From assembly GCA_020848545.1 (NCBI GenBank), contig JADLHZ010000031.1, positions 18,483-82,482 on the forward strand: a DNA stretch of 64,000 nt, read 5' to 3'. The translations under genes were made by a program, and so were the position numbers. The notes beneath the pieces were generated by a model that saw only the letters and a program-made list of their open reading frames with translations, made no database searches and was not told the origin of the DNA. The DNA comes from Deltaproteobacteria bacterium. Its GTDB lineage: Bacteria; Myxococcota; JADLHZ01. How positions within the stretch are numbered: the stretch's first letter is position 1; each line of letters opens with the position of its first letter. Positions 6,167 through 32,761 of this stretch are shown here, piece by piece.

Positions 6167-6676
6167 ATGAGCTCGCTCTTCTTTCACCCGATGGTCGTTC
6201 ACTTGCCGATCGCGCTTGGAATCTTGATGCCCTTCGTCGCTGCGGGCGTGCTCGTGGCGATGTGGAAGAATTGGTTGCCGACGCGCGCGTGGCTGGGCGT
6301 CGTCTTGCTGCAAGCCTTGCTCGTCGGCACCGGCATCATCGCGATGCGCAGCGGCGAGGCCGAGGAGGAGCGTGTCGAGCGCGTGACCGGCGAGCCTGCG
6401 ATCGAAGCGCACGAAGAGGCGGCGGAGCAGTTCGTTTGGGCGAGCGGCGCGGTGCTCGGCGTGATGTTGGTCGCCGGTGCGCTGCGCCGATCGCGCTCCG
6501 GGCTGCCGCTCGCCGGCGCGGCCGCGCTCGGCACGTTGCTCGTGCTCGGCTTCGGCTACCGCACCGGAAAGGCCGGCGGGGCCCTCGTGTACGAGCACGG
6601 TGCGGCGCAGGCTTACGCGCACGCGGCAGCGGATGGGGCGAGAGCGAGCGGCGACGGCGACGACGACCATGACTAA
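6167..6676 (+). CDS. DUF2231-like membrane protein
   Basis: FFHPMVVHLPIALG is the HPxxxHxP motif. 4 TM helices with an acidic tail. Convergent with nnrS and overlaps it. Confidence 0.6.
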   Translation: MSSLFFHPMVVHLPIALGILMPFVAAGVLVAMWKNWLPTRAWLGVVLLQALLVGTGIIAMRSGEAEEERVERVTGEPAIEAHEEAAEQFVWASGAVLGVMLVAGALRRSRSGLPLAGAAALGTLLVLGFGYRTGKAGGALVYEHGAAQAYAHAAADGARASGDGDDDHD

Positions 6677-7827
6677 CCCGGCTTGCCGTCAGCGCGCGGG
6701 CTGACGAGCCACGGCGCGTAACGGGCGAGGTAGAGCGCGAAGCCGAGCGTCCAGGCGCCGCCCGCGATGGCGTACCAAACCATGGCAGACGCTGGCGCGA
6801 TGACCGGCAGAAACGCACGCACCGGCGTCGCGATCGCGAGCAGCACGAAGCCGACGACGACGCTCGCCGGCGCGATCATCGGCCGGCCCGTGTGGCCCAA
6901 CGCGACGCGCGACATCATGCCGAGGATCAACGTGCCGATCGCGCCGGTCGTCAACACATGGATCGCAGAGGGCTCGGGCAACGGCACGCCGAGCAAGCTC
7001 AGCCCGCGCAGCACCAGGCCGAGCGCGAGCCACGCGTAGCCTTTGTGCAGCACCCACAAGATCGGCGCGCGCGTCGTGCGGAAGGACGCCCAGCCAGCGA
7101 GCCGCATGGCCTGGACGAGACCCGCGAAGAGGCACGCGGCTCCGAGCGCGCGCGTGTCGCCAGCGATCTCGCAGCCGAGCACAAACGCCATGCTGGCCAC
7201 GCTCAGCGCTTCGATCACGCGATAGGATCGCAGTGGCGCACCAGCGATTGCGCTCCTCGTGAAGAACGGGATCACGCGGCCGCCGATGATCACGATGAGC
7301 GCGAGGACGAGATCGAGCGCCACGAGCCACGCGGTGCGCTTCGCGTCGGTGAAGTAGAACACGCCGTTCGCGACCGCGAGCAGAAAGAGCACGCCAAGGA
7401 TCGCGAGCTGGCGATGCTGCTTCGCTTGCAGGATCGGCCGCGCCACGAAGAAGCCGAGCGCCGGGAGGAAGCAGAGGTCGACGGCCCCGACGAGCGCGGG
7501 GGGTAACACAGCGGCGAGCGCCACCGCGATTCGTCCGGCGAGCCAAAGCGCGCACAAAAACGCGAGGCTCGGGCCGGACGCCGTGTCGCGGCCCGTCCAG
7601 TTGCGCGCCGCGGTCAGCAAGAAGCCCGCGATCACCGCCGTGACGAAGCCGAAGATCATCTCGTGGGCGTGCCAGGCGATGCCGCCGGTCGGAGCGATCT
7701 GCGCGAGGCCGAGGATCCACAGCGGCATCTGCAGCACCGTGAACGTCGCGGCGAGCAGAAAGAACGCGCGAAAGCCGTAGGCGAACAGCGTCATCCCGCG
7801 GCCCGCTTGCCCGCCCAAAGGTGCCAA
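6673..7827 (-). CDS. nnrS: NnrS family haem-copper membrane protein (NO response)
   Basis: MTLFAYGFRAFFLLAA... is the typical NnrS N-terminus. Polytopic membrane protein, 384 aa. Confidence 0.85.
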   Translation of the reverse strand: MAPLGGQAGRGMTLFAYGFRAFFLLAATFTVLQMPLWILGLAQIAPTGGIAWHAHEMIFGFVTAVIAGFLLTAARNWTGRDTASGPSLAFLCALWLAGRIAVALAAVLPPALVGAVDLCFLPALGFFVARPILQAKQHRQLAILGVLFLLAVANGVFYFTDAKRTAWLVALDLVLALIVIIGGRVIPFFTRSAIAGAPLRSYRVIEALSVASMAFVLGCEIAGDTRALGAACLFAGLVQAMRLAGWASFRTTRAPILWVLHKGYAWLALGLVLRGLSLLGVPLPEPSAIHVLTTGAIGTLILGMMSRVALGHTGRPMIAPASVVVGFVLLAIATPVRAFLPVIAPASAMVWYAIAGGAWTLGFALYLARYAPWLVSPRADGKPG

Positions 7828-12193: not shown

Positions 12194-14167
12194 TCACTGT
12201 GCCGACGCGGTCTTCAGCCGCGGCTTGACCAAGAAGTAGCCCGCCATCTCGAGGTGCAGTGCCGAGCAAAATTCGGTGCAGTACATCGGATAGACGCCGG
12301 CCTTGTCGGCGACGAAGGTGATGTTCTCGTGCTTGCCTGGCTCGAGGCTGACGTTGATGTTGTACATGTTGAGCGCGAAGCCGTGCGTCTGATCGTCCGC
12401 CTGCTCGAGGCTCGTCAGGTGCAGGTTCACGGTGTCGCCTTCGTTCACCTCGATGCGATCCGGCGTGAAGTGGCTGCGGATGAGCGACATGTAGACGTCG
12501 ACGGTGGTGCCCTTGCGATCGATGCGTTCTTTGCCGGCCTCGGCGCGGAAGGGATCGAGCTTCTCCGTATACGGGTTCGTGCCGACGGCGTACTTCATGA
12601 CCGGCTTCAGCTTGTCCATCTTGATCATCTGCGAGTAGTGCGGCTCGCCGATGGCGATGGGCATGTCGTAGATGAGCTTCATCTTTGGGCCGCTCGCGTC
12701 GATGAGCTGGAAGTTCTGCGGCAACAGTGGGCCGACGCGGCTGAAGCGATCCATCGACATCTTGTTCATCGCGACGACGTACTTGCCGTCGGGGCTCACG
12801 GTGTCGCCCTCGGCCGCCATGATGTGGCCGATGTTGTAGTGGACTGGAAGCTTCTCGAGCAGCTTCATTTCCTTCAGTGACCACTTGGCGACGACGCTCT
12901 CGATGAAGACGGAGGTGTAGACGTTGCCCTTGTCGTCGAAGACCGAGTGCAGTGGTCCCAGGCCGATTTCGACTTGGCCGCGGATGCTGTCCTTGAACGC
13001 GAGGATCGGCACACCATAGGCGTCCTTGCCCTCGAACTTCTTCTCTTCGATCAGCGTCTTCAGCTTGCTGAACTCGTAGACCGTCGCGTGCGTGTCGAGC
13101 TTGCCGCCGACGACGACGGCGGTTCCGTCAGGCGTGACGTCGCAGCCGTGCGGGCTCTTCGGCTCGCCGACGAGCGTCAACACGCCCTCGGCGCCTGAGA
13201 CTTCGAGCGGCAACACTTTGAAGCCTTTGATCGTCTTCGCCTTGCCGGCTTTGACGAGCTGCTCGGCCTTTTTCCAGTTGATGATGTGCAAGTAGTCCAT
13301 GTCGTTCTGTGAGGCGCCGGACTCGATCGGGGGCTTGCCTTCCAGCACGCCACCGGTCGCCATCTCGGTGTTGAACGAGTTGATGAAGACGTAGCCGTCG
13401 GAGCCGAGCTTGCCGGCGTCGGCGAGATCCTGCGTGTAGGGCGGAAGCTCGACGGCCCAGCTGTTCTCGGGCTCGATGCGGCCGTGCTCCTTGTTGAACT
13501 TCCAGAACATCGCGAGCCCGCGGTACTTGTCCTTGTACTCGCCGATCGCAGCGTATTCGCGACCGAGCGGCGCCGGGTACTGGCTCGTCTCGACGATGTA
13601 GGTCGTGTTCGGATCGACGAAGGCGCCGCCGTGATCGCTCGAGATCAACGGATTGGCGACGATCTGCTTGGTCATGAAGTCGCTGAGATCGATGACCGCG
13701 ACGCGCGCGTTCGCCTTGTCGTTCACGAAGAGGTACTTGCCGTCGTAGTCGCCGTTCGTCTCGGAGAGGTTCGGGTGGTGCACGTCGGCCCAGGTGATCG
13801 ACTTGCCGTTCTGCTTGCCCTGATCGAACATCTCTTGGCCGCTTTTCGATCCGTAGCCGTAGCCTTGCCACGGCTCGGGGGCGAACACGCCGATCAGCTT
13901 CAGCATGCGCATCGACGGCACGCCGATCGCGAGCACTTGGCCGCCGTGACCGCCCGACGCGAAGATCATGTACTCATCGGCTTTACCGCCAGGTGTGTAC
14001 GTCTTCAGCGCGGCCTCGACGTCGGCCTCGGTGAGTTGGCGCGCGGTCATCAGCTCTTTGACTGACGAGCTGCCGGCGGGCTGGGTAGGTGCGCTGCCGC
14101 CTGTGCAACCGATGACGAGCGCGGCAGCGAGCGCCCATCCGAGAACGATGACGTGGTTTTGTTTCAT
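12194..14167 (-). CDS. nosZ: Nitrous-oxide reductase NosZ, clade II (Sec-type lipoprotein signal)
   Basis: CuA motif YPMYCTEFCSALHLEMAGY at the C-terminus. Beta-propeller CuZ domain histidines. Start MKQNHVIVLGWALAAALVIGCTGG is a lipobox, not Tat. ORF upstream extension rejected. Confidence 0.92.
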   Translation of the reverse strand: MKQNHVIVLGWALAAALVIGCTGGSAPTQPAGSSSVKELMTARQLTEADVEAALKTYTPGGKADEYMIFASGGHGGQVLAIGVPSMRMLKLIGVFAPEPWQGYGYGSKSGQEMFDQGKQNGKSITWADVHHPNLSETNGDYDGKYLFVNDKANARVAVIDLSDFMTKQIVANPLISSDHGGAFVDPNTTYIVETSQYPAPLGREYAAIGEYKDKYRGLAMFWKFNKEHGRIEPENSWAVELPPYTQDLADAGKLGSDGYVFINSFNTEMATGGVLEGKPPIESGASQNDMDYLHIINWKKAEQLVKAGKAKTIKGFKVLPLEVSGAEGVLTLVGEPKSPHGCDVTPDGTAVVVGGKLDTHATVYEFSKLKTLIEEKKFEGKDAYGVPILAFKDSIRGQVEIGLGPLHSVFDDKGNVYTSVFIESVVAKWSLKEMKLLEKLPVHYNIGHIMAAEGDTVSPDGKYVVAMNKMSMDRFSRVGPLLPQNFQLIDASGPKMKLIYDMPIAIGEPHYSQMIKMDKLKPVMKYAVGTNPYTEKLDPFRAEAGKERIDRKGTTVDVYMSLIRSHFTPDRIEVNEGDTVNLHLTSLEQADDQTHGFALNMYNINVSLEPGKHENITFVADKAGVYPMYCTEFCSALHLEMAGYFLVKPRLKTASAQ

Positions 14168-14182
14168 GATCGACGCAGTGAG

Positions 14183-14197
14183 CAAAAGAGGTGCCAC
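14183..14197 (-). promoter_or_regulatory. Sigma-54 promoter (perfect TGGCAC-N5-TTGC) for nosZ
   Basis: Minus strand reads TGGCACctcttTTGC. The -12 GC lies about 16 nt upstream of the nosZ ATG, so the transcript would be leaderless. Confidence 0.7.
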
Positions 14198-14248
14198 CGA
14201 CGAAAAGCGCGTAGCTTCGTGTTCTTGTGCGCGAGTGTTTCCCTCTCG

Positions 14249-14287
14249 TAACGAAGTCATCCCCGCCGTAGCGAAGCGGTAACGAAG
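14249..14287. promoter_or_regulatory. Three direct repeats GTARCGAAG between the divergent nosZ and FixH-like promoters (UAS candidate)
   Basis: gtaacgaag at 14249, gtagcgaag at 14268, gtaacgaag at 14279. The last two form CGAAGCGGTAACGAAG. Confidence 0.45.
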
Positions 14288-14313
14288 CGCATGGTTCCTC
14301 GGGCTGAGCGCCT

Positions 14314-17888: not shown

Positions 17889-18823
17889 GCCGCCTGAAGA
17901 GCGCACTCGTCACCGGCGCGACGACGCCGCTCGGCCGCAGCTTGTGTGCGCGGCTGTTGGCGAGTGGCTGCGAAGTGCTGGCGGTGGGGCTCGAGGCCGA
18001 GAGCGCTGCGCGCTTTCTGATCCCCGAGGCCGCGGCGTATGCAGCCGCCGATCTCGCCAAGCCGCGCGAGCTGCACGATCTCGTGTTTGGGCCGGCGAAG
18101 GCGCGATCGATCGACACCGTGTTTCACTTGGCGACGCATCGCAGCCTCGGCGTCGAAGGCGAGCGTGTGCACGCGCTGAACGTCGAGGCGTTGCGCCAGC
18201 TCATCGCGCACTGCGAAGCGCATCCGACGATCGCGCGCCTCGTCTACCGCTCGTACGCCGAGGTGTACCGCGTGGATCAGCGGCTGCCGAACGTCATCGA
18301 CGAGGAGCACCCGCTCGATCATGGCGCCGGACGCCCGCAGTGGCTGCGCGACCGCGTGGAGGCCGACGGCGTGGCGTGCGCGCGCATGGGCATGACGAAG
18401 CTCGAGATCGCGGTCCTGCGCTGCGCCGACGTCTTCGCCTCGGGCACCGGATCGCAGATCTACGACTACGTGCGTTCGCGGGTGTGCTTCAAGCCGCTCG
18501 GCTTCGATCCCATGATCAACCTGTTGTCGCTCGAAGACGCGGCAGAGGCCCTGTTTCTCGCCGGCGCCGCCGAGCGGGGCCAGGGCGTCTTCAACGTGCC
18601 GGGCGCCGACACGATGCCGCTCGGTTTGTGCATTCGCTCTGCGAAGCGCATCGCCGTGCCGCTGCCGGGACCGCTGCTCTTGCCGCTCTATGCGCTGAGG
18701 CGGCGGATCATTCGCACCGAGTTCTCGTACGGGCTCTATAAAGGACGCATGCACTTTCCCGGCATCCTCGACGGCCGTCGTGCGCGTGAGGTGCTCGGCT
18801 TCCAGCCGGCCGGGGTCAGCTGA
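17885..18823 (+). CDS. NAD-dependent epimerase/dehydratase (SDR family)
   Basis: N-terminal Rossmann motif ALVTGATTPLGRSL. GTGA overlap with upstream stop. Confidence 0.75.
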   Translation: MSRLKSALVTGATTPLGRSLCARLLASGCEVLAVGLEAESAARFLIPEAAAYAAADLAKPRELHDLVFGPAKARSIDTVFHLATHRSLGVEGERVHALNVEALRQLIAHCEAHPTIARLVYRSYAEVYRVDQRLPNVIDEEHPLDHGAGRPQWLRDRVEADGVACARMGMTKLEIAVLRCADVFASGTGSQIYDYVRSRVCFKPLGFDPMINLLSLEDAAEALFLAGAAERGQGVFNVPGADTMPLGLCIRSAKRIAVPLPGPLLLPLYALRRRIIRTEFSYGLYKGRMHFPGILDGRRAREVLGFQPAGVS

Positions 18824-19721
18824 CCAGCCCGTCTCCGCGCACGATGAGCACGCTGCGATCGGCGTTGTTCGCGATCCGCCCGGCGGTCGTTCCGAGCACG
18901 CGGTCGATCGGATCGTAGCCGTGTGAGCCGATGACGATGAGGCCGGCGTCTTTACCGCGTGCGATGTCGAGGACGACGTCAGCGGGCGTGCCGATGCGCG
19001 CTTCCGTCTCGGCGGCGATGGCGTCCGGCAGGGCGCCGCGGACTTGCTCGAGCTGCGTCTTCTCACGTTGCACGAGCATCGCCATGAGCTCATCCGGCCG
19101 CGCACCCCACACCGCCGAGGTGATGTCGGCGGGCGGCTGCACCGCGCGGATCAGCGTGAGGCGCCCGCGGCTCGGCCGCGCGAGGGCTTCGGCGGCCGCG
19201 AGCACGCGCTGCGAACGCTCGGAGCCGTCATGCGCGACGGCGATGCGCTCGAAGCCGACCGCCGCCTTCGCGCCCTTTGCTTGCCGCGCGATCAGCACCG
19301 AGCAGTCGGCGCGGTTCGCGATCTTCGCCGCGGTGGTGCCGAGCAAACGCTCGACCGGCCGGTACGTGTGCGCGCCGATGACGATGATCGCGGCGTGGTG
19401 CGCGATCGCCGCGTCCTTGATCACGCGCCACGCCGGGCCGGCCTCGACCTTCTCGTCGATCACCGTCCCTTGGCGAAAGCTCGACGCTGCCGTAGCGACC
19501 GCTTTGCGCGCGGCCGCGTCCATCTCGTTCCAGATCGTCGAGTCGTTGAAGGCAGCGAGCTCGGGCGGAACGAGCGCCTGCAGCTCCATGCCTTCGACGG
19601 CGGAGATCAGCGCGACCTTTGCGTCGAGCCGATCGGCCATCAGGCGCGCCGCTTCAACGACGAGCGCCGCGCGCGGAGACGGGTCGACGGCGACGACGAT
19701 GACTCTGTTCTTCGTGCTCAT
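18816..19721 (-). CDS. Tandem universal stress protein (2x UspA domains)
   Basis: Start MSTKNRVIVVAVD. Two USP domains with VIGSHG/VIGAHT motifs. Confidence 0.8.
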   Translation of the reverse strand: MSTKNRVIVVAVDPSPRAALVVEAARLMADRLDAKVALISAVEGMELQALVPPELAAFNDSTIWNEMDAAARKAVATAASSFRQGTVIDEKVEAGPAWRVIKDAAIAHHAAIIVIGAHTYRPVERLLGTTAAKIANRADCSVLIARQAKGAKAAVGFERIAVAHDGSERSQRVLAAAEALARPSRGRLTLIRAVQPPADITSAVWGARPDELMAMLVQREKTQLEQVRGALPDAIAAETEARIGTPADVVLDIARGKDAGLIVIGSHGYDPIDRVLGTTAGRIANNADRSVLIVRGDGLVS

Positions 19722-19895
19722 GCTCTGCCGCGGTTTCACGCCTCGTGCCATGCGCCAGGAACGAGGACTGGGGGCTCTTTGTGTCACCGAACGGTAGCAC
19801 GAGTGGTGGTCGAGATTTCCGAACGGTAACTCTCACCCTGTAATCGCACGTCGTCGGCGCGCACGCACTTTGCATTCTTCCTCGCGGAGGTGCCG

Positions 19896-20678
19896 ATGAA
19901 AGGCACGATCAGGTCGTTTTACGAGCGCTACCCGCGGCGGTGGAGTTACCCGGTTGCGGGGCTCGTGCTCGCGCTCGGCGCGCCGATCGGCTTCTTCGTC
20001 GTGCGCGCGCTCTTCGCCGGTCACATTCCGTCGCCGATGTGGATCGAGGTCGAGCTGCGGGAGCGCTTCGATGCTTACGTCTACCTCACCTTCGCCACGG
20101 CGATCGTCTTCTCCTGGGCCGGCCGCGTCGTCGGTGTCGAGCAAGATCGCGTGCGCGCGGACTCGCTGACCGATCCGCTCACCAGCCTGCCGAACCGGCG
20201 CTTCGCGCAAGAACGCGCCGAGGCGCTGCTCTTGCGCGGGGATCCGCGCGTCTCGGTGTTGCTCATCGATCTCGACGGCTTGAAGCAGATCAACGAGAAG
20301 CACGGCCATGACGGCGGCGATCGTGCGCTCTGCGCCGTCGCGGCGACGCTGCGTAAAGTCTGCCGGCGTGAAGACGTGTTCGCGCGCTACGGCGGCGACG
20401 AGTTCATCGTGCTCTTGCCGAAGATGGTCGCCGCCGACGCGATGCGTGTCGCCGAACGCGTGTGCGCGACGATGACGAAGACGGCGCAGACGAACGGCCT
20501 TGGTCCACTCTCGGTGTCCATCGGGGTCGCCGATACCGAGACGGCCGCGACGAACACGCTGCTCGGGCTGGTGCAGGCGGCCGATGCGGCGCTGCAAGCC
20601 GCGAAGCACGAAGGCAAGAACCGTGCGAAGCTGGCCCGCTCGTTGCACAAAGCCGCCGGCAAGGGAGCCGTCTCATGA
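19896..20678 (+). CDS. GGDEF-domain diguanylate cyclase with N-terminal TM region
   Basis: RYGGDEF active site. GGAGG RBS 6 bp upstream of ATG 19896. Confidence 0.85.
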   Translation: MKGTIRSFYERYPRRWSYPVAGLVLALGAPIGFFVVRALFAGHIPSPMWIEVELRERFDAYVYLTFATAIVFSWAGRVVGVEQDRVRADSLTDPLTSLPNRRFAQERAEALLLRGDPRVSVLLIDLDGLKQINEKHGHDGGDRALCAVAATLRKVCRREDVFARYGGDEFIVLLPKMVAADAMRVAERVCATMTKTAQTNGLGPLSVSIGVADTETAATNTLLGLVQAADAALQAAKHEGKNRAKLARSLHKAAGKGAVS

Positions 20679-21127
20679 CCACGAAGAAGATCCTTGCCGC
20701 CCTCGACTTCTCCAAGTTCTCGCAGGAGGTCGTCAACTTCGCCGCTGACTTCGCGCGCCGTTACGATGCGTCGCTCACGCTCCTGCACGTCGCGGATGAG
20801 CCGAACCGCGTCTTCCCCGAGGGCTTCGTCGCGATCATGCCGGCGCGGACCACCGAGTTGCTGAATCTGCTCGAGATGGCGCTGGCCGACGCAAAGAAGG
20901 AGGCGATCGCGGCTGGCGCAACGAACGTGAGCACGATGCTCGTGAAGGGCGTGCCCTTCGCCGAGATCGCGCAGATCGCGCAGGACAAAGCGTACGACAC
21001 GATCATCGTCGGCACCCACGGCCGCACTGGGCTCATGCACGCGCTGCTCGGCTCCGTCGCCGAGAAGGTGGTGCGCAGCGCGCCATGCACCGTGATCACC
21101 GTGCGCGATCGCGCCGCGGCGAAGTGA
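20675..21127 (+). CDS. Universal stress protein UspA
   Basis: Start MTTKKILAALD. ATGA overlap with GGDEF stop. AAGGGAG RBS. Confidence 0.8.
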   Translation: MTTKKILAALDFSKFSQEVVNFAADFARRYDASLTLLHVADEPNRVFPEGFVAIMPARTTELLNLLEMALADAKKEAIAAGATNVSTMLVKGVPFAEIAQIAQDKAYDTIIVGTHGRTGLMHALLGSVAEKVVRSAPCTVITVRDRAAAK

Positions 21128-24329: not shown

Positions 24330-24475
24330 ACGAACCTCTGACGCGTCACCCGATCACTTTTCGTGCCACTTTCGCATACTTGTGGCGAAGCGGAAGATGT
24401 TTCGGCTTGGTAACGCCGCCGATGGGATCGTCACCGACAGGTGCGTTTCCCTCGGTGTCTTCGCGGTGAACTCCT

Positions 24476-24491
24476 TGGTGTGCGCTTTGCA
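24476..24491 (+). promoter_or_regulatory. Sigma-54 promoter (TGGtgtg-cgct-TTGCA) for Host_attach-EBP-kinase operon
   Basis: Correct GG-N10-GC spacing. TTGCA -12 element. About 15-nt leader with GAGGTG SD before ATG 24517. Confidence 0.6.
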
Positions 24492-24516: not shown

Positions 24517-24879
24517 ATGGAGACGATCTGGGTCCTGGTCTGCAACCAAAAGAGCGCTGTGATCCTGAGCGCCAAAGCGCGGACCGCAGCTCCTCAGATC
24601 GTGGAGACCATCGGCAATCCCGACGAGAGCGACCCTCTGGTCTTTGCGCGGCGCTTGGCGGCGATGCTCGAGAGCGCGGCCGATATGGGCGGCTTCGATC
24701 GCCTCGTCGTCATGGCGCCGGCGCCGTTTCTCGCCAGCCTCGAGGACGTGTTCCATGCCCCGGTGCGAGGGCGCATTGCCCTCACCATCCAGGAAGACAT
24801 CGCCGAATGGCCGATGCCGGAGATCGTTGCGTCGGTACGCAAAATCATCGATGAGCAGGTGCGTGTAGCCGGCGCCTAG
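24517..24879 (+). CDS. Host_attach (baeRF1-like) family small protein
   Basis: IWVLVCNQKSAVIL ... GFDRLVVMAPAPFLASL ... DIAEWPMPEI matches the Host_attachment signature. GAGGTG RBS. Sits downstream of a sigma-54 promoter. Confidence 0.55.
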   Translation: METIWVLVCNQKSAVILSAKARTAAPQIVETIGNPDESDPLVFARRLAAMLESAADMGGFDRLVVMAPAPFLASLEDVFHAPVRGRIALTIQEDIAEWPMPEIVASVRKIIDEQVRVAGA

Positions 24880-24903: not shown

Positions 24904-26268
24904 ATGCTTTCGATCTTGCTCGTAGACGATGAGCCTTCGATCCGGTTGGCGGTCGGCGATGCCCTCGCCGGCAACGGGCACAAGGTGACGCGCGCCAGTG
25001 ACGGCGGCGAGGCACTCGCGCTGCTCGATGCACAGGTCTTCGACCTCGTGGTCACGGACATCAGCATGCCCAAGGTCGACGGGCTGACGCTCTTTCGTAA
25101 GTTGCGCGAAGCGAGCCCGTCGACCGACGTCATCTTGATGACCGCGTACGGCAAGGTGACCGACGCCGTCGAGGCGCTCAAGCAGGGTGCTGAAGACTAC
25201 CTGACGAAGCCTTTTTCTACGGAAGAGATGCTCGTGCGCGTGCAGCGGATCGACGATCGCCGCGCGTTGAAGCGCGAGCTGCAAGCGGCCAAGTCCGAGC
25301 TGACGGGGGGTGGCATCATCGGCCAATCGCCGGTGATGGTGCGCCTGCTCGATCGCATCGATACGATCGCAGCGAGCGATGCCAGCGTCTTGATCCTCGG
25401 CGAGAGCGGCACGGGCAAGGAGCTCGTCGCCAGGCGCTTGCACGATCAGAGCGCGCGCAAGGCGAAGCCCTTCGTCGCCGTCAACTGCGCCGCGTTTCCC
25501 GAGACGCTGATCGAGGCTGAGCTCTTCGGCCATGAGCGCGGTGCGTTCACTGGCGCGGCGCAGCGGCGCGAAGGCAGGTTCAAGGCGGCCGACGGCGGCA
25601 CGCTCTTTCTCGACGAGGTGGCCGAGATCCCGTTGCCGGTTCAGGCGAAGCTCCTGCGCGTGCTGCAAGAAGGGGTGTTCGAGCCGATCGGAACGAACAC
25701 GCCGATCAAGGTGAACGTCCGCGTCATCTCGGCCACACACAGAGATCTGCGCGCGCGAATCAAAGAGCACGCGTTCCGCGAGGATTTGTTCTATCGCTTG
25801 AACGTGCTCGACGTGCACCTGCCGCCCCTGCGCGAGCGTCGTGGCGACTTGCCGCTGCTCGTGGAGGCGTTCTTGAAGCGCGCAGTCGGTCGCGGCGGTG
25901 CGCAGCCGGCGGGGATCTCGCCGCGCGCGTGGGCAGCGCTCTCGGACTACTTGTTTCCGGGCAACGTGCGCGAGCTTCAGCACGCGATAGAGCACGCCGT
26001 CGTGCTCGCCCGCGGCGGCGAGATCGATCTGCACCACCTGCCGCGCGATATCGTCGGCATCGCCGAGGCCAAGAAGGATCAAGCGACGACTGCCGTACGG
26101 ACGCTGGCGGTGGCGGCCAAGGAGTTCGAGCGCGAATACCTCTTGCGCGCGCTGCACCAGGCCGACGGCAAGAAAGGACGCGCGGCGGACCTGCTCGGCA
26201 TCTCGCGCAAGAACCTCTGGGAGAAGCTCAAGGGTCATGACATCGCAGACAGCGACGACGACGCATGA
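24904..26268 (+). CDS. Sigma-54-dependent Fis-family response regulator (NtrC-like EBP)
   Basis: REC domain (D54 region VVTDISMP). AAA+ sigma-54 activation domain with GESGTGKE and GAFTGA. C-terminal Fis HTH. Confidence 0.9.
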   Translation: MLSILLVDDEPSIRLAVGDALAGNGHKVTRASDGGEALALLDAQVFDLVVTDISMPKVDGLTLFRKLREASPSTDVILMTAYGKVTDAVEALKQGAEDYLTKPFSTEEMLVRVQRIDDRRALKRELQAAKSELTGGGIIGQSPVMVRLLDRIDTIAASDASVLILGESGTGKELVARRLHDQSARKAKPFVAVNCAAFPETLIEAELFGHERGAFTGAAQRREGRFKAADGGTLFLDEVAEIPLPVQAKLLRVLQEGVFEPIGTNTPIKVNVRVISATHRDLRARIKEHAFREDLFYRLNVLDVHLPPLRERRGDLPLLVEAFLKRAVGRGGAQPAGISPRAWAALSDYLFPGNVRELQHAIEHAVVLARGGEIDLHHLPRDIVGIAEAKKDQATTAVRTLAVAAKEFEREYLLRALHQADGKKGRAADLLGISRKNLWEKLKGHDIADSDDDA

Positions 26269-26338: not shown

Positions 26339-27418
26339 ATGATCCGGGTCTTTCTCGTGGACGACGACGAGGACGACTACGTCCTCACGCGTGGCCTCCT
26401 CGGCGACATTCCCGGGAGCTTCGAGCTCGCGTGGATGCCGTCGATCGACAAGGCGCGCGCCGCGTTGCGCGACACAGTGCCCGACCTCATCCTGCTCGAC
26501 TATCTCCTTGGTGCCGAGAGCGGCCTCGATTTCCTGAAGGAGCTGCGCAGAGCCGGGCTCGGGCTGCCAGTGATTATCCTCACTGGGCAAGGCGATCGCG
26601 AGATCGACATGGCGGCCATGGCGGCCGGGGCCACGGACTACTTGGTGAAGAGCGAGCTCTCGGCCGCGATCTTGGACCGGGCGATCCGCTACGCGATGTC
26701 GGTGAGCGAGCTGCACCGAAAGCTGCTCGAGGATCACGAGCGCTTGCAGCAGATGGAGAAGCTTTCTGTCGTCGGGCTGATCGCCGCGGGGATCGTGCAC
26801 GAGGTGAGCAACCCGCTGACCGGCGTCATGAGTCTCGTGCAAGCGCTGCACGACGGCAAGGCGGGCGACTCGCGCGACGAGTACTTCAAGGCGGTCAAAG
26901 ACGGGCTCGAGCGGATGCGCGTCACCCTGCGATCGTTGCTCGATCTCGCGCGCGAGCAGCCGTTGACGCTCGCTGAGGTGGACGTCGCAGAGCTCGTGGC
27001 GGCCTGCTTTCGCCTGATGGCGGCCACGCTGCGCTCGCGCGGCATCACGCCGGTGCAGGACGTTCCCGCTGGCTTGCGCGCGCGCGCCGATCGATCGCGG
27101 GTGATTCAGGCGATCCTGAACCTGATGATGAACGCCGCCGACGCGACCCCCTCCGGCGGCAGCATCACGGTCAGCGTCACGAAGAAGCCCGGCAGCATCG
27201 GCATCGTCGTCACCGACACCGGCGCCGGCATTGCGCCCGCGATCGCCGAGCGGATCCTCGAGCCCTTCTTCACGACGAAGTCGGTGGGGAAGGGCACGGG
27301 CCTCGGCCTACCCTTCGTCGTCCAGACGGCGAAGCTCCACGGCGGCGACCTGACCATCGCCAGTCAGGTGGGCAAGGGGACGACGATGACGATGTGGCTA
27401 CGCGATGACGCGCGGTGA
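26339..27418 (+). CDS. Hybrid histidine kinase with N-terminal receiver (REC-HisKA-HATPase), cytoplasmic
   Basis: N-terminal REC (LLDYLLGAESG). H-box IVHEVSNPLTG. N, G1 and G2 boxes. No TM segment. Confidence 0.85.
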   Translation: MIRVFLVDDDEDDYVLTRGLLGDIPGSFELAWMPSIDKARAALRDTVPDLILLDYLLGAESGLDFLKELRRAGLGLPVIILTGQGDREIDMAAMAAGATDYLVKSELSAAILDRAIRYAMSVSELHRKLLEDHERLQQMEKLSVVGLIAAGIVHEVSNPLTGVMSLVQALHDGKAGDSRDEYFKAVKDGLERMRVTLRSLLDLAREQPLTLAEVDVAELVAACFRLMAATLRSRGITPVQDVPAGLRARADRSRVIQAILNLMMNAADATPSGGSITVSVTKKPGSIGIVVTDTGAGIAPAIAERILEPFFTTKSVGKGTGLGLPFVVQTAKLHGGDLTIASQVGKGTTMTMWLRDDAR

Positions 27419-27787
27419 GCGGCGACGGCGGCGCTCCTCGATGGTGCCGATGCGCGTGAGCAGCTCCTCCTCGGTGAACGGCTTCGTCAAGTACTCGTCG
27501 GCGCCGAGCTTGAACGCTTGCACCACGTTCGGAACGCTGCTGAACGCGGTCATGACCACGACGTCGGTCGTCGGGCTCAGCGTGCGGACTTCGCGCAAGA
27601 GCGTCATGCCATCCATCTCGGGCATGCTCACGTCGGTGATCACGAGATCGAAGACCTGCTTCGTGCACTTCTCGGTCGCCTCGACGCCGTCGTTGGCTCG
27701 CACCACGCGGTGACCGGCGCGCGTGAGAGCGTCGCCGATCGCCAGGCGGATCGACGGTTCGTCGTCGACGAGGAGGATGGAGAGCAT
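27398..27787 (-). CDS. Single-domain CheY-like response regulator, paralog of the EBP receiver
   Basis: MLSILLVDDEPSIRLAIGDAL is nearly identical to the EBP N-terminus MLSILLVDDEPSIRLAVGDAL. Codon usage differs, so the duplication is old. Confidence 0.85.
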   Translation of the reverse strand: MLSILLVDDEPSIRLAIGDALTRAGHRVVRANDGVEATEKCTKQVFDLVITDVSMPEMDGMTLLREVRTLSPTTDVVVMTAFSSVPNVVQAFKLGADEYLTKPFTEEELLTRIGTIEERRRRRSPRVIA

Positions 27788-27792
27788 GCGCT

Positions 27793-28044
27793 TTAGATCT
27801 TCTTCTTCGTCGTCTTCTGGAATTCGATCAGCGCTTGGATCGCGCCGCCGAGCGCTGCCGCGGAGACCTCCGTCACTTCGAGCGCGGCCTCCTCGGCCTT
27901 CAGCACGCGCGGTTCGAGCGCCGCCCACGCTTGCTTCAGCTCCATGCCGAACAAGTGCGCCTGCACGCGGATCTCGTCGCGCAGCGTGCGCAGCTTGCTC
28001 AGGCTCTCGTCGATCTGCTTCTGTAGCTCCTTCTTCTTTTCCAT
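27793..28044 (-). CDS. Small all-helical protein (83 aa), possible Hpt-like or coiled-coil connector
   Basis: Start MEKKKELQKQ. Coiled-coil heptads. AHLFGMELK is weakly Hpt-like. Lies between CBS and CheY genes in the same operon. Confidence 0.4.
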   Translation of the reverse strand: MEKKKELQKQIDESLSKLRTLRDEIRVQAHLFGMELKQAWAALEPRVLKAEEAALEVTEVSAAALGGAIQALIEFQKTTKKKI

Positions 28045-28070
28045 CGCCTGCTCCTCGTCCGTTTGTGAAA

Positions 28071-28520
28071 TTAGTCTTCGTCCAAGAGATCGAGCACCCA
28101 AGCGAGCGCCGCTAGCGCGTCGACGGCGGTGAAGATGCCGACGACGCGTCCCTTGTCTGCGACGACGGCCGAGCCGAACTTCTTGCGCGCCATCACCCGC
28201 ACCGTCTCGTCCAGCTTCGCCAGCGGCGCCACCACGTAGGGCTCCGACGTCATCGCCTCTTCGACCGCGATCGCGCCCGGATCGACACCGTCGAGGGTCT
28301 CGACCATCTCGAGATCGCGCTGCGACACGATGCCGACCAGCTTGCCGCCGTCGAGCACGGGCAAGTGGCGGATGCCGTGCTCGCGCATCAGCTCGTGCGC
28401 TTTCTGCAGTGTTTGCTTCCTACCAATCGTATGCGGCGTGGCGGTCATGTACTTGTCGACCGTCTCGGCGACGTGCTTGCCCCTGATCGAGATCGTCTGT
28501 GCTCGTGGCCTAGGCGACAT
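28071..28520 (-). CDS. CBS-domain pair protein
   Basis: Two CBS motifs (HLPVLDGGKLVGIVSQRDL and AVVADKGRVVGIFTAVD). GGAGGA RBS. Sigma-54 promoter upstream. Confidence 0.8.
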   Translation of the reverse strand: MSPRPRAQTISIRGKHVAETVDKYMTATPHTIGRKQTLQKAHELMREHGIRHLPVLDGGKLVGIVSQRDLEMVETLDGVDPGAIAVEEAMTSEPYVVAPLAKLDETVRVMARKKFGSAVVADKGRVVGIFTAVDALAALAWVLDLLDED

Positions 28521-28545
28521 GTTCGAATCCTCCGGCGACAGGAAT

Positions 28546-28561
28546 TGCAAAGTAGGGACCA
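28546..28561 (-). promoter_or_regulatory. Sigma-54 promoter (TGGtccc-tact-TTGCA) for CBS - small protein - CheY operon
   Basis: Minus-strand sequence TGGTCCCTACTTTGCA. About 17-nt leader with GGAGGA SD before ATG 28520. Confidence 0.6.
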
Positions 28562-28600
28562 AGGTCGAATGCCTGGGCTCATCGGTGGAATGGTTTCGAA

Positions 28601-28630
28601 TCGGTAACGCCCGCCCGTTGGTGCGTTACC
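28601..28630. promoter_or_regulatory. Palindrome CGGTAACGC-N12-GCGTTACCG upstream of CBS-operon sigma-54 promoter (UAS candidate)
   Basis: Perfect 9-bp inverted repeat, 45-75 bp upstream of the -24 element. Confidence 0.5.
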
Positions 28631-28636
28631 GCCGGG

Positions 28637-29044
28637 TCAGCGGCTGTTGTGGCAGCTCGTGCAGGATCCGGTCAGCGCGCCAGCGAGATAGTAGTTCGGA
28701 GGGTCGGCCTCGGCTGCCAGCTTCGCGGCCGTTACCGCGCGCCGAAAGTCATCGAGGTGCTCGTCGATCTTCGGGTGATTCGTCGGCTTGCCGTCGAGCG
28801 TCGCCGCGTGTGCTTGCATGAGCGAGAGCCGGTCGACCACGTCTTTTCCCACGACGAGCGGCGCCGGTCGCTGCAGCAGGTTTTCGAGCTCGACGACGTC
28901 CCCCGCGAGGAGCCACATCGTCGTCCTCAACTCCGCGCGCGGAATGTAGTGGAAAGTCGGCGCGTAGGTCACGGCGCGAATGCTTCCGGTCAGCGGTGCG
29001 CAGGCGAGAAAAAGCGCGGCGAACGGGAGGAGCTTGCGGGTCAT
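28637..29044 (-). CDS. Cytochrome c'-like lipoprotein (second copy)
   Basis: Lipobox LFLACAP. Helical. C-terminal CTSCH haem motif. Confidence 0.55.
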   Translation of the reverse strand: MTRKLLPFAALFLACAPLTGSIRAVTYAPTFHYIPRAELRTTMWLLAGDVVELENLLQRPAPLVVGKDVVDRLSLMQAHAATLDGKPTNHPKIDEHLDDFRRAVTAAKLAAEADPPNYYLAGALTGSCTSCHNSR

Positions 29045-29087
29045 GCGCCGCGGAGTTGCACGAGTCGGACCAAGCACGGCTGACGCT

Positions 29088-29951
29088 TCAGGCAAAAACG
29101 AAGCGATCGGCGTACCCGGCGGCGGCGGTATCGACTTCTCCGCGCGCCGCCGTTTGCATCAGGCGATCGCGGCCGCAGAGCAGCGCGAGCTCCGGAATGT
29201 CGCGCATGACGCCCCAGACGACGACGGGCAGCACGCGCTTCGCCACCGCCAAGCGCACAGGGCCGAGGCGGCTGCGCACGAAGTGAACGTGGCCCACCTC
29301 GTCGACCATGATCTGCGCGAAGAGCGTCTCGATGCGCGCGAGCACGGCGGGCTGATCGGCGAAGAGCACGCGCGCCTTTTCGAGCAGCAATGTGAAGATC
29401 GCGACGCCCACGATCTCTCCGCAGAGCACGAAGACGTCGGACATCTGGCTCGGCAGGCGCACCATGGCGTTGACCATGGCGCGGGTCACGGCGGTCGGCC
29501 GGCCGATCTCGACCGTGAGGCCGATCGTCGCGAGCGCGTCGCGCAGGATCCGCGTGTGATAGAGCTCTTCGATCATGATGTACGCGTGCGGGTCGTTTGC
29601 GGCGTCGGGCGGCTTGCCGTTGTGGGCGATCTCGAAGTCGACGCCGAAGCGCTCGGCGCGGTTGGTCTTAGCCGTGGCGAGCGCCCACAGCGTGCGTTCG
29701 TCGAGGCCGCGCTCGGGGACCCGGCGTTCATGATTGCGATCGAACACGCGTTGATCGACCGGCGGCCGCCCGCACCAGCACTGCGGCTGCGCATCGACGC
29801 CGGCGAAGAAGCGCTCGCGGATGTCGAAGCGCTGGGCGTCGAGATCGGGCGTGCCATCACGGGCGTGCAAATAGGCGAGGTAGGCGCTGCGGAAGCGACT
29901 TTGGTCGGCGGCGCTCATCGGATCGAAGGCGGTGCTCACCTGCTGCTCCAT
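29088..29951 (-). CDS. Ferritin-like di-iron carboxylate protein (AurF/DUF-type oxygenase-like)
   Basis: Two ExxH motifs (EELYH, DEVGHVHF) with upstream E residues. Start MEQQVSTAF. Confidence 0.5.
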   Translation of the reverse strand: MEQQVSTAFDPMSAADQSRFRSAYLAYLHARDGTPDLDAQRFDIRERFFAGVDAQPQCWCGRPPVDQRVFDRNHERRVPERGLDERTLWALATAKTNRAERFGVDFEIAHNGKPPDAANDPHAYIMIEELYHTRILRDALATIGLTVEIGRPTAVTRAMVNAMVRLPSQMSDVFVLCGEIVGVAIFTLLLEKARVLFADQPAVLARIETLFAQIMVDEVGHVHFVRSRLGPVRLAVAKRVLPVVVWGVMRDIPELALLCGRDRLMQTAARGEVDTAAAGYADRFVFA

Positions 29952-31091: not shown

Positions 31092-31433
31092 CTAGTCGAC
31101 GACGATGCGCGCGTTGATCATCTTGTTCATCCCGCAGCCGTACTTCAGCGTGCCGCTCTTCTTCGGCGTGAAGCTCACGGTCACCGCCTGATTCAGCGGC
31201 AGCGCTTGCTTGATGTTGTGCTCGTCGATCACGATCTCGGTGGCGCAGGTCTCGTCGGTCTTGCGGGTGATCACGAGGTTCAGCTGCTCGCCAAGCTTCA
31301 CGCGGATCTCTTTTGGCTCGAAGCCTTTCGCCGTGACGCTGACCTCGTAGGTCTTTCCCGGCAGCGGCTTCTTCTCTTCGGCGTTGGCGGCAGCGACGAA
31401 GATCAACAGGGCGGCGAGGGTGAGGCGAATCAT
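31092..31433 (-). CDS. Small periplasmic cupredoxin-like protein
   Basis: Signal peptide. Ligand-like C..H..C..M residues (TCATE, HN, GCGMNKM). Immediately downstream of the multicopper oxidase. Confidence 0.6.
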   Translation of the reverse strand: MIRLTLAALLIFVAAANAEEKKPLPGKTYEVSVTAKGFEPKEIRVKLGEQLNLVITRKTDETCATEIVIDEHNIKQALPLNQAVTVSFTPKKSGTLKYGCGMNKMINARIVVD

Positions 31434-31459
31434 CGAAGGCTCCATTCAGTGTCGAGACA

Positions 31460-32761
31460 CTAACTGTCGAAACGAATCCCGTCTTTCTGCATCTGCTCGG
31501 GCGTCGCGGCGCTCGCCGTCGTGCCCGGCGGATGTTTGTACCATCCTTGCGCGTCCGGCGCCGACGGATCGTCGCGCACCTTCAACACCGTGAACATGCC
31601 GCCCATGTCGATGTAGCCGAACGGCCCGTTGCCGCCGCGCATCGGCGCGCTGTTCTCCGGGATCGGCATGATCATCTCGCCCATCCCGCCCATGCCCGTC
31701 GTGCCCATCGTCATGTACTCGGGCAGCAAGCGCTCCATCCGCTGCTCGAGCTTCGTCATGTCGGCGCCGACCATCGGCACGATGCCGTGGCCCATCTGCA
31801 TCATCACGTGGTGGGTCATGTGGCAGTGCATCGCCCAGTCGCCTGATTCAGGCGGCGTGAACTCGATCGTGCGCGTGCTGCCGACCGGCACGAGCACCGT
31901 CGTCTCGGCATGCTGCGCGCTCGCGGGCGTGTCGCCGCCGTCGGTCGCGGTGACGGCGAAGTTGAGGCCGTGGATGTGGATCGGGTGGTGATCCATCGGG
32001 CTCAAGTTGCCGAAGCGCATGCGCACGCGCTCGCCTTTGCCGACGAGCATCGGCTGCGTGGCCGGGAACGCCTTGCCGTTGAACGTGAGCACGTTGAAGT
32101 CGCTCATCGCGTTCGGATCTGGGCGCTTGGTGCCGGCGGCGATCTTCCACTCGTGCGTCATCAAGGCGAAGTCGCGATCGACCTTCTTCGCCTGCTTCGG
32201 ATGGACGACGAACATGCCGTGCATGCCGAGCGCGATCTGCGTCATCTCGTCGAAGTGCGGGTGATACATGAAGGTGCCGTGCTGCCTCAGCGTGAATTCG
32301 TAGACGAAGGTTTGCCCCGGCGCGATCGGCGGCTGGTTGAGCCCGGAGACGCCGTCCATTCCGTTGGCCAAGATGATGCCGTGCCAGTGCACGGTGGTCG
32401 GCTCGCGCAGGCGGTTCGTCACGTAGAGGCGCAGGCGATCGCCTTCCATGCACTCGATCGTCGGCCCGGGCGTGCCGCCGTTGTAGCCCCAGACGCGCAC
32501 CTTCAAGCCCGGCGCGAAGTCGTGCTCGAATTCCTCGGCGACGAGGTGGCCGACCTTGACGTTGCCGACGGTGCGCAAAGGCAAGGTCGATCCGTTCGGC
32601 GTGACGACGGCGAGCGGCCCGCCTGGTGTGACGGCCGCGCTCTTCGCTGACGGCGTGTCGGTCGCGTTGGCAGCCGCGGCGGGCGCCGCGTCCGCGTGGC
32701 GCGTCAAGATCGCCGCGCTCGCGGCGGCGCCCGTCAATTGTAGGAACTTGCGTCGGTGCAT
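31460..32761 (-). CDS. Multicopper oxidase with Tat signal and Met-rich region (CopA-like)
   Basis: Tat motif RRKFLQL. HWHG, HPHFD and HCHMTHH sites. MTMGTTGMGGMGEM Met-rich segment. Confidence 0.85.
   Translation of the reverse strand: MHRRKFLQLTGAAASAAILTRHADAAPAAAANATDTPSAKSAAVTPGGPLAVVTPNGSTLPLRTVGNVKVGHLVAEEFEHDFAPGLKVRVWGYNGGTPGPTIECMEGDRLRLYVTNRLREPTTVHWHGIILANGMDGVSGLNQPPIAPGQTFVYEFTLRQHGTFMYHPHFDEMTQIALGMHGMFVVHPKQAKKVDRDFALMTHEWKIAAGTKRPDPNAMSDFNVLTFNGKAFPATQPMLVGKGERVRMRFGNLSPMDHHPIHIHGLNFAVTATDGGDTPASAQHAETTVLVPVGSTRTIEFTPPESGDWAMHCHMTHHVMMQMGHGIVPMVGADMTKLEQRMERLLPEYMTMGTTGMGGMGEMIMPIPENSAPMRGGNGPFGYIDMGGMFTVLKVRDDPSAPDAQGWYKHPPGTTASAATPEQMQKDGIRFDS

Follow-up and report, generated by a model that had tools for sequence, protein, structure and literature searches.

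In this study, we analyzed a 64,000-nucleotide stretch of a Deltaproteobacteria bacterium (Myxococcota; assembly GCA_020848545.1, contig JADLHZ010000031.1, positions 18,483 to 82,482 of the forward strand), hereafter called the window; all counts, absences and statements of "only" at window level refer to these 64 kb. The closest relatives of the source contig are metagenome-assembled genomes of Polyangia/Myxococcales. Our focus is a minus-strand operon (operon B) that encodes a CBS-pair protein, an 83-aa protein (H83) and a single-domain receiver, and that converges on the gene of a REC-HisKA-HATPase kinase. This kinase belongs to a plus-strand operon (operon A), which also encodes an NtrC-type enhancer-binding protein (EBP). 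Based on sequence comparison and on analogy with known systems, we consider it fairly probable that operon B is transcribed from a sigma-54 promoter with an activator site of two dyads, that the EBP binds this site within a signalling circuit similar to the Nmp system of Myxococcus, and that the lone receiver provides feedback, while the CBS protein and H83 are cargo of the regulon. The coordinates of all features are given in Table 1.

The predicted promoter of operon B, TGGTCCCTACTTTGCA, agrees with the sigma-54 consensus, has its GG and GC 10 nt apart and lies close to a gene: it ends 25 nt before the ATG of the CBS gene (28520), and a GGAGGA Shine-Dalgarno sequence is located within these 25 nt. 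Transcription is predicted to start near position 28535, which would leave a leader of about 15 nt including GGAGGA. Read on the minus strand, the complete arrangement is CGGTAACGC-accaacgggcgg-GCGTTACCG, 40 nt, TGGTCCCTACTTTGCA, 25 nt, ATG. The pattern TGG-N8-TTGCW occurs seven times in the window compared to 1.6 expected copies, a number reached in 0/100 shuffles, and 4/7 of these elements are found 13-28 nt 5' of start codons. Furthermore, an ortholog contig carrying the CBS and H83 genes (L073; L numbers denote related loci) features TGGTCTTCACCTTGCA at the equivalent promoter position, and a scan of positions 27000-29200 revealed no sigma-70-like promoter. Among the CBS homologs, a sigma-54-like element was detected within 200 nt upstream in 20/65 cases using a graded score (about 4.5 expected), and in only 5/65 cases using the strict pattern. 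Spacing, enrichment in the window and conservation in L073 thus support the preliminary description of this DNA, which was made from its letters alone and had predicted a sigma-54 promoter with an upstream activator site at this position.

This description had also reported a perfect 9-bp inverted repeat with a 12-nt gap, CGGTAACGC-N12-GCGTTACCG, and had interpreted it as the enhancer site of an EBP. We recovered the repeat at the measured position listed in Table 1. Since the window is rich in perfect repeats of this kind (9-bp arms, gap of 3-30 nt; 62 seeds, compared to about 35 in Markov simulations), the palindrome alone is weak evidence. The pattern GGTAACG-N10-18-CGTTACC with at most two mismatches was found exactly twice in the 64 kb, 67 and 69 nt 5' of the TGG of the two convergent sigma-54 promoters; of a relaxed form of this pattern, 0.055 copies are expected per window, and two or more were obtained in 0/200 simulations. 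Overall, in five independent promoters that represent four genomes, the distance from the start of the inner palindrome to the TGG is 66-69 nt. In the relatives, where this distance to the sigma-54 element is 66-68 nt, the promoters belong to hemN in L065, to the CBS gene in L082/L083 (68% identical) and to the EBP ortholog in L088.

Alignment of the promoters on their TGG revealed additional half-sites located exactly 4 nt outside each arm of the palindrome, as in L088 (GTTACC-gtcg-CGAAAC, N15, GTTTCC-ggca-GGTAAC) and L082 (GCTTCC-gaac-GGAAAC, N15, GTTTCC-gagc-GGTAAC). We therefore describe the putative activator site as two 16-bp dyads of the form GTTWCC-N4-GGWAAC, a distal one (S1) and a proximal one (S2), 15-16 bp apart. 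The perfect palindrome most likely represents the inner half-sites of S1 and S2 rather than a single binding unit. Of the earlier interpretation, the predicted upstream activator site was retained and its anatomy refined. Upstream of operon B, S1 and S2 are separated by 16 nt, their centres lie about 71 and 39 nt 5' of the TGG, respectively, and the pair matches the consensus at 21/24 positions. The left half of S1 shares bases with the TGA that ends the upstream cytochrome c'-like gene and is constrained for this reason.

Scored over all four half-sites, seven promoters reached 19-23/24, and all seven showed the S1-S2 spacing of 15-16 bp. Random 110-nt windows, which served as the null, had a mean score of 12.4 and a 99th percentile of 16; approximately 0.4% of them scored 19 or higher, about as many as would be expected to overlap the real sites by chance. 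The distance from S2 to the TGG amounts to 29-32 nt in six promoters (operon B as well as operon A, L065 hemN, L082 CBS, L088 EBP and a tandem universal stress protein (USP) gene of the window) and to 40 nt, one helical turn more, at nosZ. The only four strong dyad pairs of the window are those of operon B, operon A, nosZ and the tandem USP gene, and all four precede genes with a -24/-12 element 29-40 nt downstream of the dyads. Two dyads within about 150 bp of a -24/-12 element, in a motif that recurs and is also present at the promoter of the activator itself, suggest that the sites are bound by the neighbouring NtrC-type EBP. The fixed phasing in four genomes, together with a site in front of the EBP gene in two of them, would be hard to get by chance.

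The genes preceded by the dyad unit, namely the EBP operon, nosZ and the tandem USP gene in the window, and hemN, CBS and EBP genes in relatives, point to a low-oxygen/N-oxide stress regulon. The nosZ gene appears to be part of it: its near-consensus sigma-54 element TGGCACCTCTTTTGCT (14196-14181) ends 13 nt before the ATG, and the dyads GTTACC-gctt-CGCTAC and GTTACG-agag-GGAAAC are located 5' of it. Genes for NosD and an ABC-2 permease follow downstream of nosZ. At the tandem USP gene, the -24 region is a perfect TGGCACG, with the dyads at the usual distance. We also considered a plus-strand sigma-54 promoter in front of a GGDEF gene (19896) and rejected it, as its GG/GC spacing is wrong; the dyads serve the divergent tandem USP gene. 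A further, single-domain USP gene carries TGGCCCGCTCGTTGCA 27 nt before its ATG, within the 3' end of the GGDEF gene (19890-20678), and no dyads were seen upstream of this element. In the related locus L080, the GGTAAC/GTTACC hexamer occurs five times, each time in an intergenic region with a sigma-54-like promoter.

Promoter, Pfam domains and gene order agree with the operon of CBS, 83-aa and receiver genes that had been proposed to follow the sigma-54 promoter, and this order is conserved in L069 and L075. The CBS protein resembles Rv2626c/Hrp1 and AcuB (PDB match to Rv2626c with E=2.5e-10); it would represent cargo of the regulon, acting as a sensor of adenylates or energy state and not as a component of phosphotransfer. 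For the gene upstream of operon B, the designation as cytochrome c'-like is a tentative one that follows from a C-terminal CxxCH and the weak Pfam match of an ortholog, while the protein of the window itself gave no match in Pfam or by sequence in the PDB. In L086 (1-200), the end of the cytochrome c'-like gene and the start of the CBS gene share ATGA, and an 85-aa gene comes next; these three genes are apparently transcribed together, with neither a promoter nor a palindrome inside the unit.

At the other end of operon B, the convergent orientation and the N-terminal receiver of the hybrid kinase were as described before, according to Pfam and the tail-to-tail arrangement of the genes. The 3' ends of the receiver and kinase genes overlap by 21 nt (27398-27418), and no terminator-like site was found between operons A and B. 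As both operons are predicted targets of the same activator, antisense effects or transcriptional interference may occur.

Operon A consists of the genes for a baeRF12/Host_attach protein, the EBP and the kinase, with a gap of 70 nt between the latter two. The kinase is the one histidine kinase of the window and features neither a globin nor a PAS domain. The baeRF12 gene also adjoins an EBP gene in the 26-kb contig of a relative. In L088 (823-1332), the EBP ortholog comprises 169 aa: it follows the EBP into the start of the AAA+ domain, diverges and stops, owing to a frameshift, to faulty assembly or to a natural truncation. In the last case, it could show how receiver-only paralogs originate.

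Next, we compared the lone receiver with the receiver of the EBP. The first 21 residues are identical at 20/21 positions and the complete domains at 74/129, with about 50% identity in the remaining part. Over the 21 N-terminal residues, the DNA is identical at 50/63 positions, and 28/74 of the identical residues are encoded by different codons; the previously noted paralogy, with a nearly identical N-terminus and different codons, was thus confirmed. A recent gene conversion was ruled out because 13/63 nucleotides differ, and the likeness points to purifying selection. The phospho-acceptor pocket of the lone receiver is intact (D8, D9, D52, T80 and K102, assigned by alignment to invariant columns), and receiver-only orthologs are stable in length (124-132 aa) with 58-81% identity. 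At the alpha-1 positions 14, 15, 18, 21 and 22 (Spo0F numbering), which we take to be the contacts of Spo0F with Spo0B as known from Spo0F/Spo0B and Laub-lab specificity work (cited in PMC6211767), both the lone receiver and the EBP carry S, I, A, D and A. The receiver of the kinase carries D, D, L, G and L and differs from the EBP at each of these positions. With an intact acceptor pocket and predicted kinase-specificity residues shared with the EBP, the lone receiver is a candidate decoy. Given the shared residues and following the logic of the Nmp system, the EBP and the lone receiver would both be partners of the kinase core, and the different residues of the kinase's own receiver predict that its partner is another, upstream kinase. 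Competition of the lone receiver with the EBP for the kinase, as suggested in the preliminary description, is therefore backed in silico by the shared predicted docking residues; the role as such is plausible.

The second gene of operon B had been regarded as a possible histidine phosphotransfer (Hpt) protein because of its AHLFG motif. H83 is a real and conserved gene, as judged from close homologs with 62-99% identity and from a profile search, whose 671 representatives (clustered at 50%) are for the most part 80-100 aa long and form a family without annotation. A metagenome scan with the H83 alignment found only two distant loci. The family signature is TLRDEIRVxxHLAGMxAKxxWxxLEP, with H30 conserved in at least 90% of the best matches. 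Structure prediction, which had been recommended as a check for a four-helix Hpt fold, produced the same three-helix bundle (helices 2-31, 34-56 and 59-82) with AlphaFold from alignments of 4 and 73 sequences, at predicted local distance difference test (pLDDT) values of 87.7 and 88.3. Foldseek against the PDB returned generic three-helix bundles as best matches (E>=0.7) and no significant Hpt: the Hpt protein ZmHP2 appeared once, at rank 42 with a probability of 0.08 for the first model, and was absent from the top 50 for the second. Likewise, no Hpt was obtained at E<10 in a profile search of PDB sequences with H83, and no Hpt family was listed in Pfam scans of H83 and 72 relatives. AHLFG differs from the HxxKG motif of Hpt domains, and its His is placed at the end of helix 1; the motif changes to AHLFN in the close homolog of L080 (Gly to Asn) and to AELGK in the distant homolog of L077 (His to Glu). 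Also, the kinase next to operon B has its receiver at the N-terminus and not at the C-terminus, as a partner of an Hpt would. The suggested Hpt-like relay function was thus not supported by fold, sequence or profile.

Homologs of H83 also occur as lone genes behind their own sigma-54-like promoters, namely TGGCCCACAATCTGCA in L065, TGGTCCGAGACCTGCA in L080 and TGGCATGTCGGATGCA in L077, and an 82-aa H83-like gene is present in the 26-kb contig mentioned above. Compared with the sll1863 stress-protein family (NF052504, cut-off 35 bits), H83 gave no match and three relatives remained below the threshold with 18-21 bits, which is a hint only of a relation between the two families. We conclude that H83 is cargo of the regulon, probably a small stress protein, and not a relay component.

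These features can be combined into a mechanism for which the closest known system appears to be NmpRSTU of Myxococcus, where a multi-component circuit of this type is known experimentally. In M. xanthus, NmpU, a protoglobin kinase, has two phosphorylation targets, namely the receiver at the N-terminus of NmpS and the receiver-only protein NmpT, a proposed sink; NmpS has the architecture REC-HisKA-CA and, when unphosphorylated, phosphorylates only NmpR and not its own receiver (PMC6211767, PMC11841059). The binding sites of NmpR are pairs of GCGCA-N5-TGCGC dyads 5' of sigma-54 promoters, usually with 14-15 bp between them, and NmpR activates its own operon (with a CBS gene as first gene), a USP gene, cbb3 oxidase genes, hemN-hemerythrin and nmpUTS (PMC6211767, PMC11841059). 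NmpRSTU contains no Hpt (PMC6211767, PMC11841059). The multi-component circuit envisaged for the window therefore has a precedent.

By analogy, the kinase of operon A would phosphorylate the EBP, with its N-terminal receiver serving as the input for an upstream sensor kinase encoded outside the window. The EBP would bind the dyads in front of operons A and B and activate both; it would be autoregulated, since its own operon carries the same two-dyad site. Once the pathway is switched on, rising amounts of the lone receiver would either divert phosphoryl groups from the kinase or keep it occupied. The EBP-type promoter predicted for the receiver gene leads us to propose such a negative feedback, and a decoy or feedback role is plausible in view of the docking residues and of FixT. 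This single-domain receiver of the FixLJ pathway in Sinorhizobium and Caulobacter is induced by the pathway and exerts negative feedback on low-oxygen sensing (PMC7078487). It inhibits the autophosphorylation of FixL and is not detectably phosphorylated in S. meliloti (PMC7078487). In silico evidence does not discriminate between a pure sink, an inhibitor of the kinase like FixT and an adaptor.

Several observations weigh against this model. The dyad model was built on the same promoters that it scores, and the outer half-sites are weak (3/6) in S2 of both operon A and hemN. At the tandem USP gene, GTGAA stands in the -12 region in place of TTGC. In L086, the cytochrome c'-like gene runs into the CBS gene by an ATGA overlap, ahead of the 83-aa gene and with no promoter in between, so that the internal promoter in front of the CBS gene is not universal but specific to a lineage. 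Neither a protoglobin kinase such as NmpU nor another sensor kinase was found in the 64-kb window. NmpT contains two receivers and matches the receiver of the intermediate kinase, whereas the receiver of the window is single and EBP-like. Finally, as FixT of S. meliloti is not phosphorylated, a sink and a kinase inhibitor are indistinguishable here.

Regarding the DNA site, the palindrome could alternatively act at the RNA level instead of binding a protein, as a terminator, an attenuator or a hairpin for processing, where the cytochrome c'-like gene ends. It begins on the same strand 5 nt past the stop codon of this gene, its stem of more than 9 bp folds with -21.3 kcal/mol, and read-through is plausible given that the cytochrome c'-like and CBS genes of L086 are co-transcribed, as their ATGA overlap implies. 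This energy corresponds to a z-score of only -1.4, however, with 21/200 shuffles folding equally well; there is no U tract, and a terminator scan of 27000-29200 found none. Moreover, the half-sites are found equally far from sigma-54 elements in divergent intergenic regions (operon A, L088 and L065), where they are not preceded by a co-directional gene, and it is the hexamers that are conserved and not their pairing, with GTCACC standing opposite GGTAAC in operon A and hemN. An RNA element is therefore decidedly improbable. Binding of the dyads by another regulator, for instance an oxygen or NO regulator of the CRP/FNR type, is improbable as well, if slightly less so. FNR-type boxes have a 5-N4-5 geometry similar to GTTWCC-N4-GGWAAC, and nosZ, hemN and USP genes are typical of FNR/DNR regulons. 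All seven sites, though, lie 29-40 nt from a -24/-12 element and not from a sigma-70 -35/-10 promoter, the EBP gene is preceded by the site in two genomes (operon A and L088), as in the autoregulation of NmpR, and two dyads 15-16 bp apart match the layout of NmpR sites. The strict phasing with the -24/-12 element in particular disfavours a binder other than the EBP.

On the side of signalling, the kinase, H83 as Hpt, the lone receiver and the EBP could form a His-Asp-His-Asp phosphorelay, an idea prompted by the nearly invariant H30 of the H83 family and by the clustering of three receivers with one kinase. This model is largely refuted in silico and hardly credible any longer: H83 adopts three helices and was not recognised as Hpt by Foldseek, PDB profile search or Pfam, its His is part of HL(F/A)G and not of HxxKG, and Gly (L080) and His (L077) can be replaced. 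Its homologs also stand alone behind sigma-54 promoters with no two-component genes nearby (L065, L080), and the receiver of the kinase is N-terminal, as in NmpS, which needs no Hpt and transfers directly to its EBP. A different view accepts the promoter and its site as described but regards the receiver as an output or adaptor regulator, or as an anti-activator, instead of a sink. As an adaptor, it would bind CBS, H83 or another target when phosphorylated; as an anti-activator, it would form a heterodimer with the EBP receiver via alpha4-beta5-alpha5. The receiver gene is co-transcribed and, with a gap of 5 nt, probably translationally coupled with the CBS and H83 genes in an order kept in L069 and L075, and the alpha4-beta5 region differs systematically between the receiver-only proteins (MTAF..V..V..FKLGA) and the EBP receivers (MTAYG.V.DAV.ALK.GA). 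Single-domain receivers often work by protein-protein contacts, FixT inhibits its kinase in the unphosphorylated state, and in loci of the L008 type the single receiver that follows the EBP is not a close paralog of it. On the other hand, conservation with the EBP is strongest in beta1-alpha1, the kinase-docking surface, in agreement with shared kinase recognition, and no partner was predicted. We thus regard an adaptor or anti-activator as unlikely, although worth bearing in mind, and retain the decoy receiver acting on the shared kinase as the preferred reading.

Table 1. Coordinates of the predicted features in the 64-kb window.
Feature	Position	Strand	Remarks
Three-domain multicopper oxidase	4126-5526	minus	
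NnrS	6673-7827	minus	
nosZ	12194-14290	minus	657 aa; lipoprotein-type signal peptide; Pfam nos_propeller and cupredoxin
Tandem USP	18816-19830	minus	302 aa; ATG near 19724; assigned by Pfam; dyads 19783-19798 and 19815-19830
Single-domain USP	20632-21127	plus	
Operon A control region	24399..24491	plus	S1 GTTTCG-gctt-GGTAAC 24399-24414; S2 GTCACC-gaca-GGTGCG 24430-24445; sigma-54 element TGGTGTGCGCTTTGCA 24476-24491
baeRF12/Host_attach protein	24517..24879	plus	assigned by Pfam; first gene of operon A
NtrC-type EBP (REC-AAA+-HTH_8)	24904..26268	plus	only EBP in the window
REC-HisKA-HATPase kinase	26339..27418	plus	NmpS/LvrB architecture; without other sensor domain; last gene of operon A
Single-domain receiver	27398..27787	minus	129 aa; Pfam Response_reg E=1.3e-32; starts 5 nt after the H83 stop codon
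H83	27793..28044	minus	83-aa open reading frame; no Pfam hit; GAGGAG 6 nt before ATG
CBS-pair protein	28071..28520	minus	149 aa; Pfam CBS E=3.8e-25; without other domain
Sigma-54 -24/-12 element TGGTCCCTACTTTGCA	28546..28561	minus	GG/GC exactly 10 nt apart; TGGCACG-N4-TTGCW spacing
Proximal dyad S2	28593..28608	minus	GTTACC-gatt-CGAAAC; ends 31 nt 5' of the -24 TGG
Perfect inverted repeat CGGTAACGC-N12-GCGTTACCG	28602-28610 and 28623-28631		9-bp arms; 41-70 nt upstream of the TGG
Distal dyad S1	28625..28640	minus	CTGACC-cggc-GGTAAC; 10/12 match to GTTWCC-N4-GGWAAC
Secreted protein with C-terminal CxxCH (cytochrome c'-like)	28637..29044	minus	ortholog with weak Cytochrom_C_2 match
Cupredoxin	31092-31445	minus	
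Two-domain multicopper oxidase	31460-32761	minus	

Besides nosZ, the window contains further N-oxide and copper genes, i.e., those for NnrS and a three-domain multicopper oxidase. A two-domain multicopper oxidase gene adjoins a cupredoxin gene, and this pair could be nirK-like.

Comparable gene sets were observed in related loci. The 26-kb contig of the relative encodes five USPs, two CBS proteins, the 82-aa H83-like protein, a cytochrome c', an EBP and baeRF12, and it shares the same acetyl-CoA hydrolase neighbour. Locus L080 (1-4673, equal to L081) is a stress island in which a separate sigma-54-like element precedes nearly every gene, at 28-104 nt from the start codon. It comprises genes for a CBS protein, a sigma-70-family factor, a second CBS protein, a USP and an 82-aa H83-like protein, as well as a gene that is cut off at the contig end and aligns with a USP gene of the longer 26-kb contig. 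Two direct repeats of CGTTACCAAACG, 21 bp apart, are located downstream of one promoter in L080. Loci of the L008 type show the order protoglobin-PAS kinase, EBP, single receiver, USP and CBS; more generally, related loci carry protoglobin-PAS or PAS kinases.

In Bdellovibrionota, CBS loci (L028, L030, L031, L037, L038 and L041) contain TGAGAC...GTCTCA or TGGGACA/TGTCCCA about 100-140 nt upstream of sigma-54 elements, and their CBS genes are followed by an EBP gene and a convergent PAS kinase gene. This suggests that the module of CBS, EBP and kinase is kept across phyla with a different DNA code. We did not accept the Bdellovibrionota palindrome (GAGAC/GTCTC type) as support for the motif described here, as its sequence is different; it supports the theme only.

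If the model holds, an Nmp-type, oxygen-responsive sigma-54 circuit would extend to uncultured Polyangia-like bacteria with a new DNA code, GTTWCC-N4-GGWAAC. The circuit would be tied to the expression of nosZ, with a bearing on the control of N2O consumption in soil Myxococcota. The output regulator would induce a decoy of its own receiver, placing a sink at the output tier, compared to the sensor tier in the case of NmpT. Going one step further, the EBP may induce a near-copy of its own receiver that is tuned to the same kinase, i.e., a self-built decoy with possible antisense interference, resulting in a self-limiting or pulse-like response to hypoxia and N-oxides that includes nosZ. In the same picture, H83 would belong to a new family of stress proteins that is widespread (671 representatives at 50% identity) and linked to sigma-54, with the near-invariant face R-D-E-x-R-x3-H serving as a functional site for a ligand or partner. 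We offer this extended picture as a possible one, though less likely than not. In any case, H83 stands for a small-protein family without annotation that is repeatedly found behind sigma-54 promoters and needs a function. The current view of two-component signalling is not overturned, and the Hpt idea that had made this locus look unusual is unsupported.

Comparing our results to known systems, H83 shares with Hpt proteins (PF01627; YPD1 and the Hpt of ArcB) the small size, the all-helical structure and a conserved His. Hpt domains differ by their four helices and the HxxKG motif, while H83 has three helices with the His at a helix end and belongs to lone stress genes away from two-component genes. 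The likeness to FixT concerns a single-domain receiver that is switched on by the low-oxygen pathway it damps, as we propose for the receiver of the window. FixT, however, is not a close paralog of the FixJ receiver, whereas the receiver of the window is a paralog of that of the EBP; the Caulobacter form has an Fe-S 4-Cys motif that is absent here, and the expression of FixT depends on sigma-70/FixK and not on sigma-54. With regard to cargo, the DosR regulon of Mycobacterium likewise combines a CBS-pair-only protein (Rv2626c/Hrp1) and several USPs as a hypoxia/NO set. DosR itself is a LuxR-type regulator of another phylum, in contrast to the sigma-54 EBP of the window and its regulon with N-oxide respiration genes.

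The comparison with NmpRSTU (EBP and kinase MXAN_4240 and MXAN_4244) is based on domain architecture, site layout and gene content. In both cases, an NtrC-type EBP and a REC-HisKA-CA kinase are encoded together, two dyads (15-16 bp apart in the window, 14-15 bp in Nmp) are combined with a sigma-54 site, and the EBP is autoregulated, as predicted here. Both also have CBS, USP and hemN genes (the latter in L065) as known or, here, predicted targets. An additional receiver-only protein occurs in both, with a proposed function as phospho-sink in the case of NmpT, but that of the window has one domain instead of two and would act one tier lower than NmpT, because its predicted docking residues match those of the output EBP and not those of the kinase's receiver. 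In contrast to the GCGCA-N5-TGCGC half-sites of Nmp, the window uses GTTWCC-N4-GGWAAC; NmpR boxes with at most one mismatch occur 17 times in the window compared to 24 expected, with none near the promoters described here. The Polyangiaceae locus L003 (5736-5952), by comparison, has three GCGCA-N5-TGCGC boxes and TGGCACGGGGGGTGCA in front of a CBS homolog, which converges on a REC-HisKA-HATPase gene and is adjoined by USP and hemerythrin genes, and thus looks like a bona fide Nmp locus. Finally, the EBP operon of the window differs from that of Nmp in starting with baeRF12/Host_attach, with the CBS gene placed in the opposite, convergent operon, and the predicted regulon of the window extends to nosZ.

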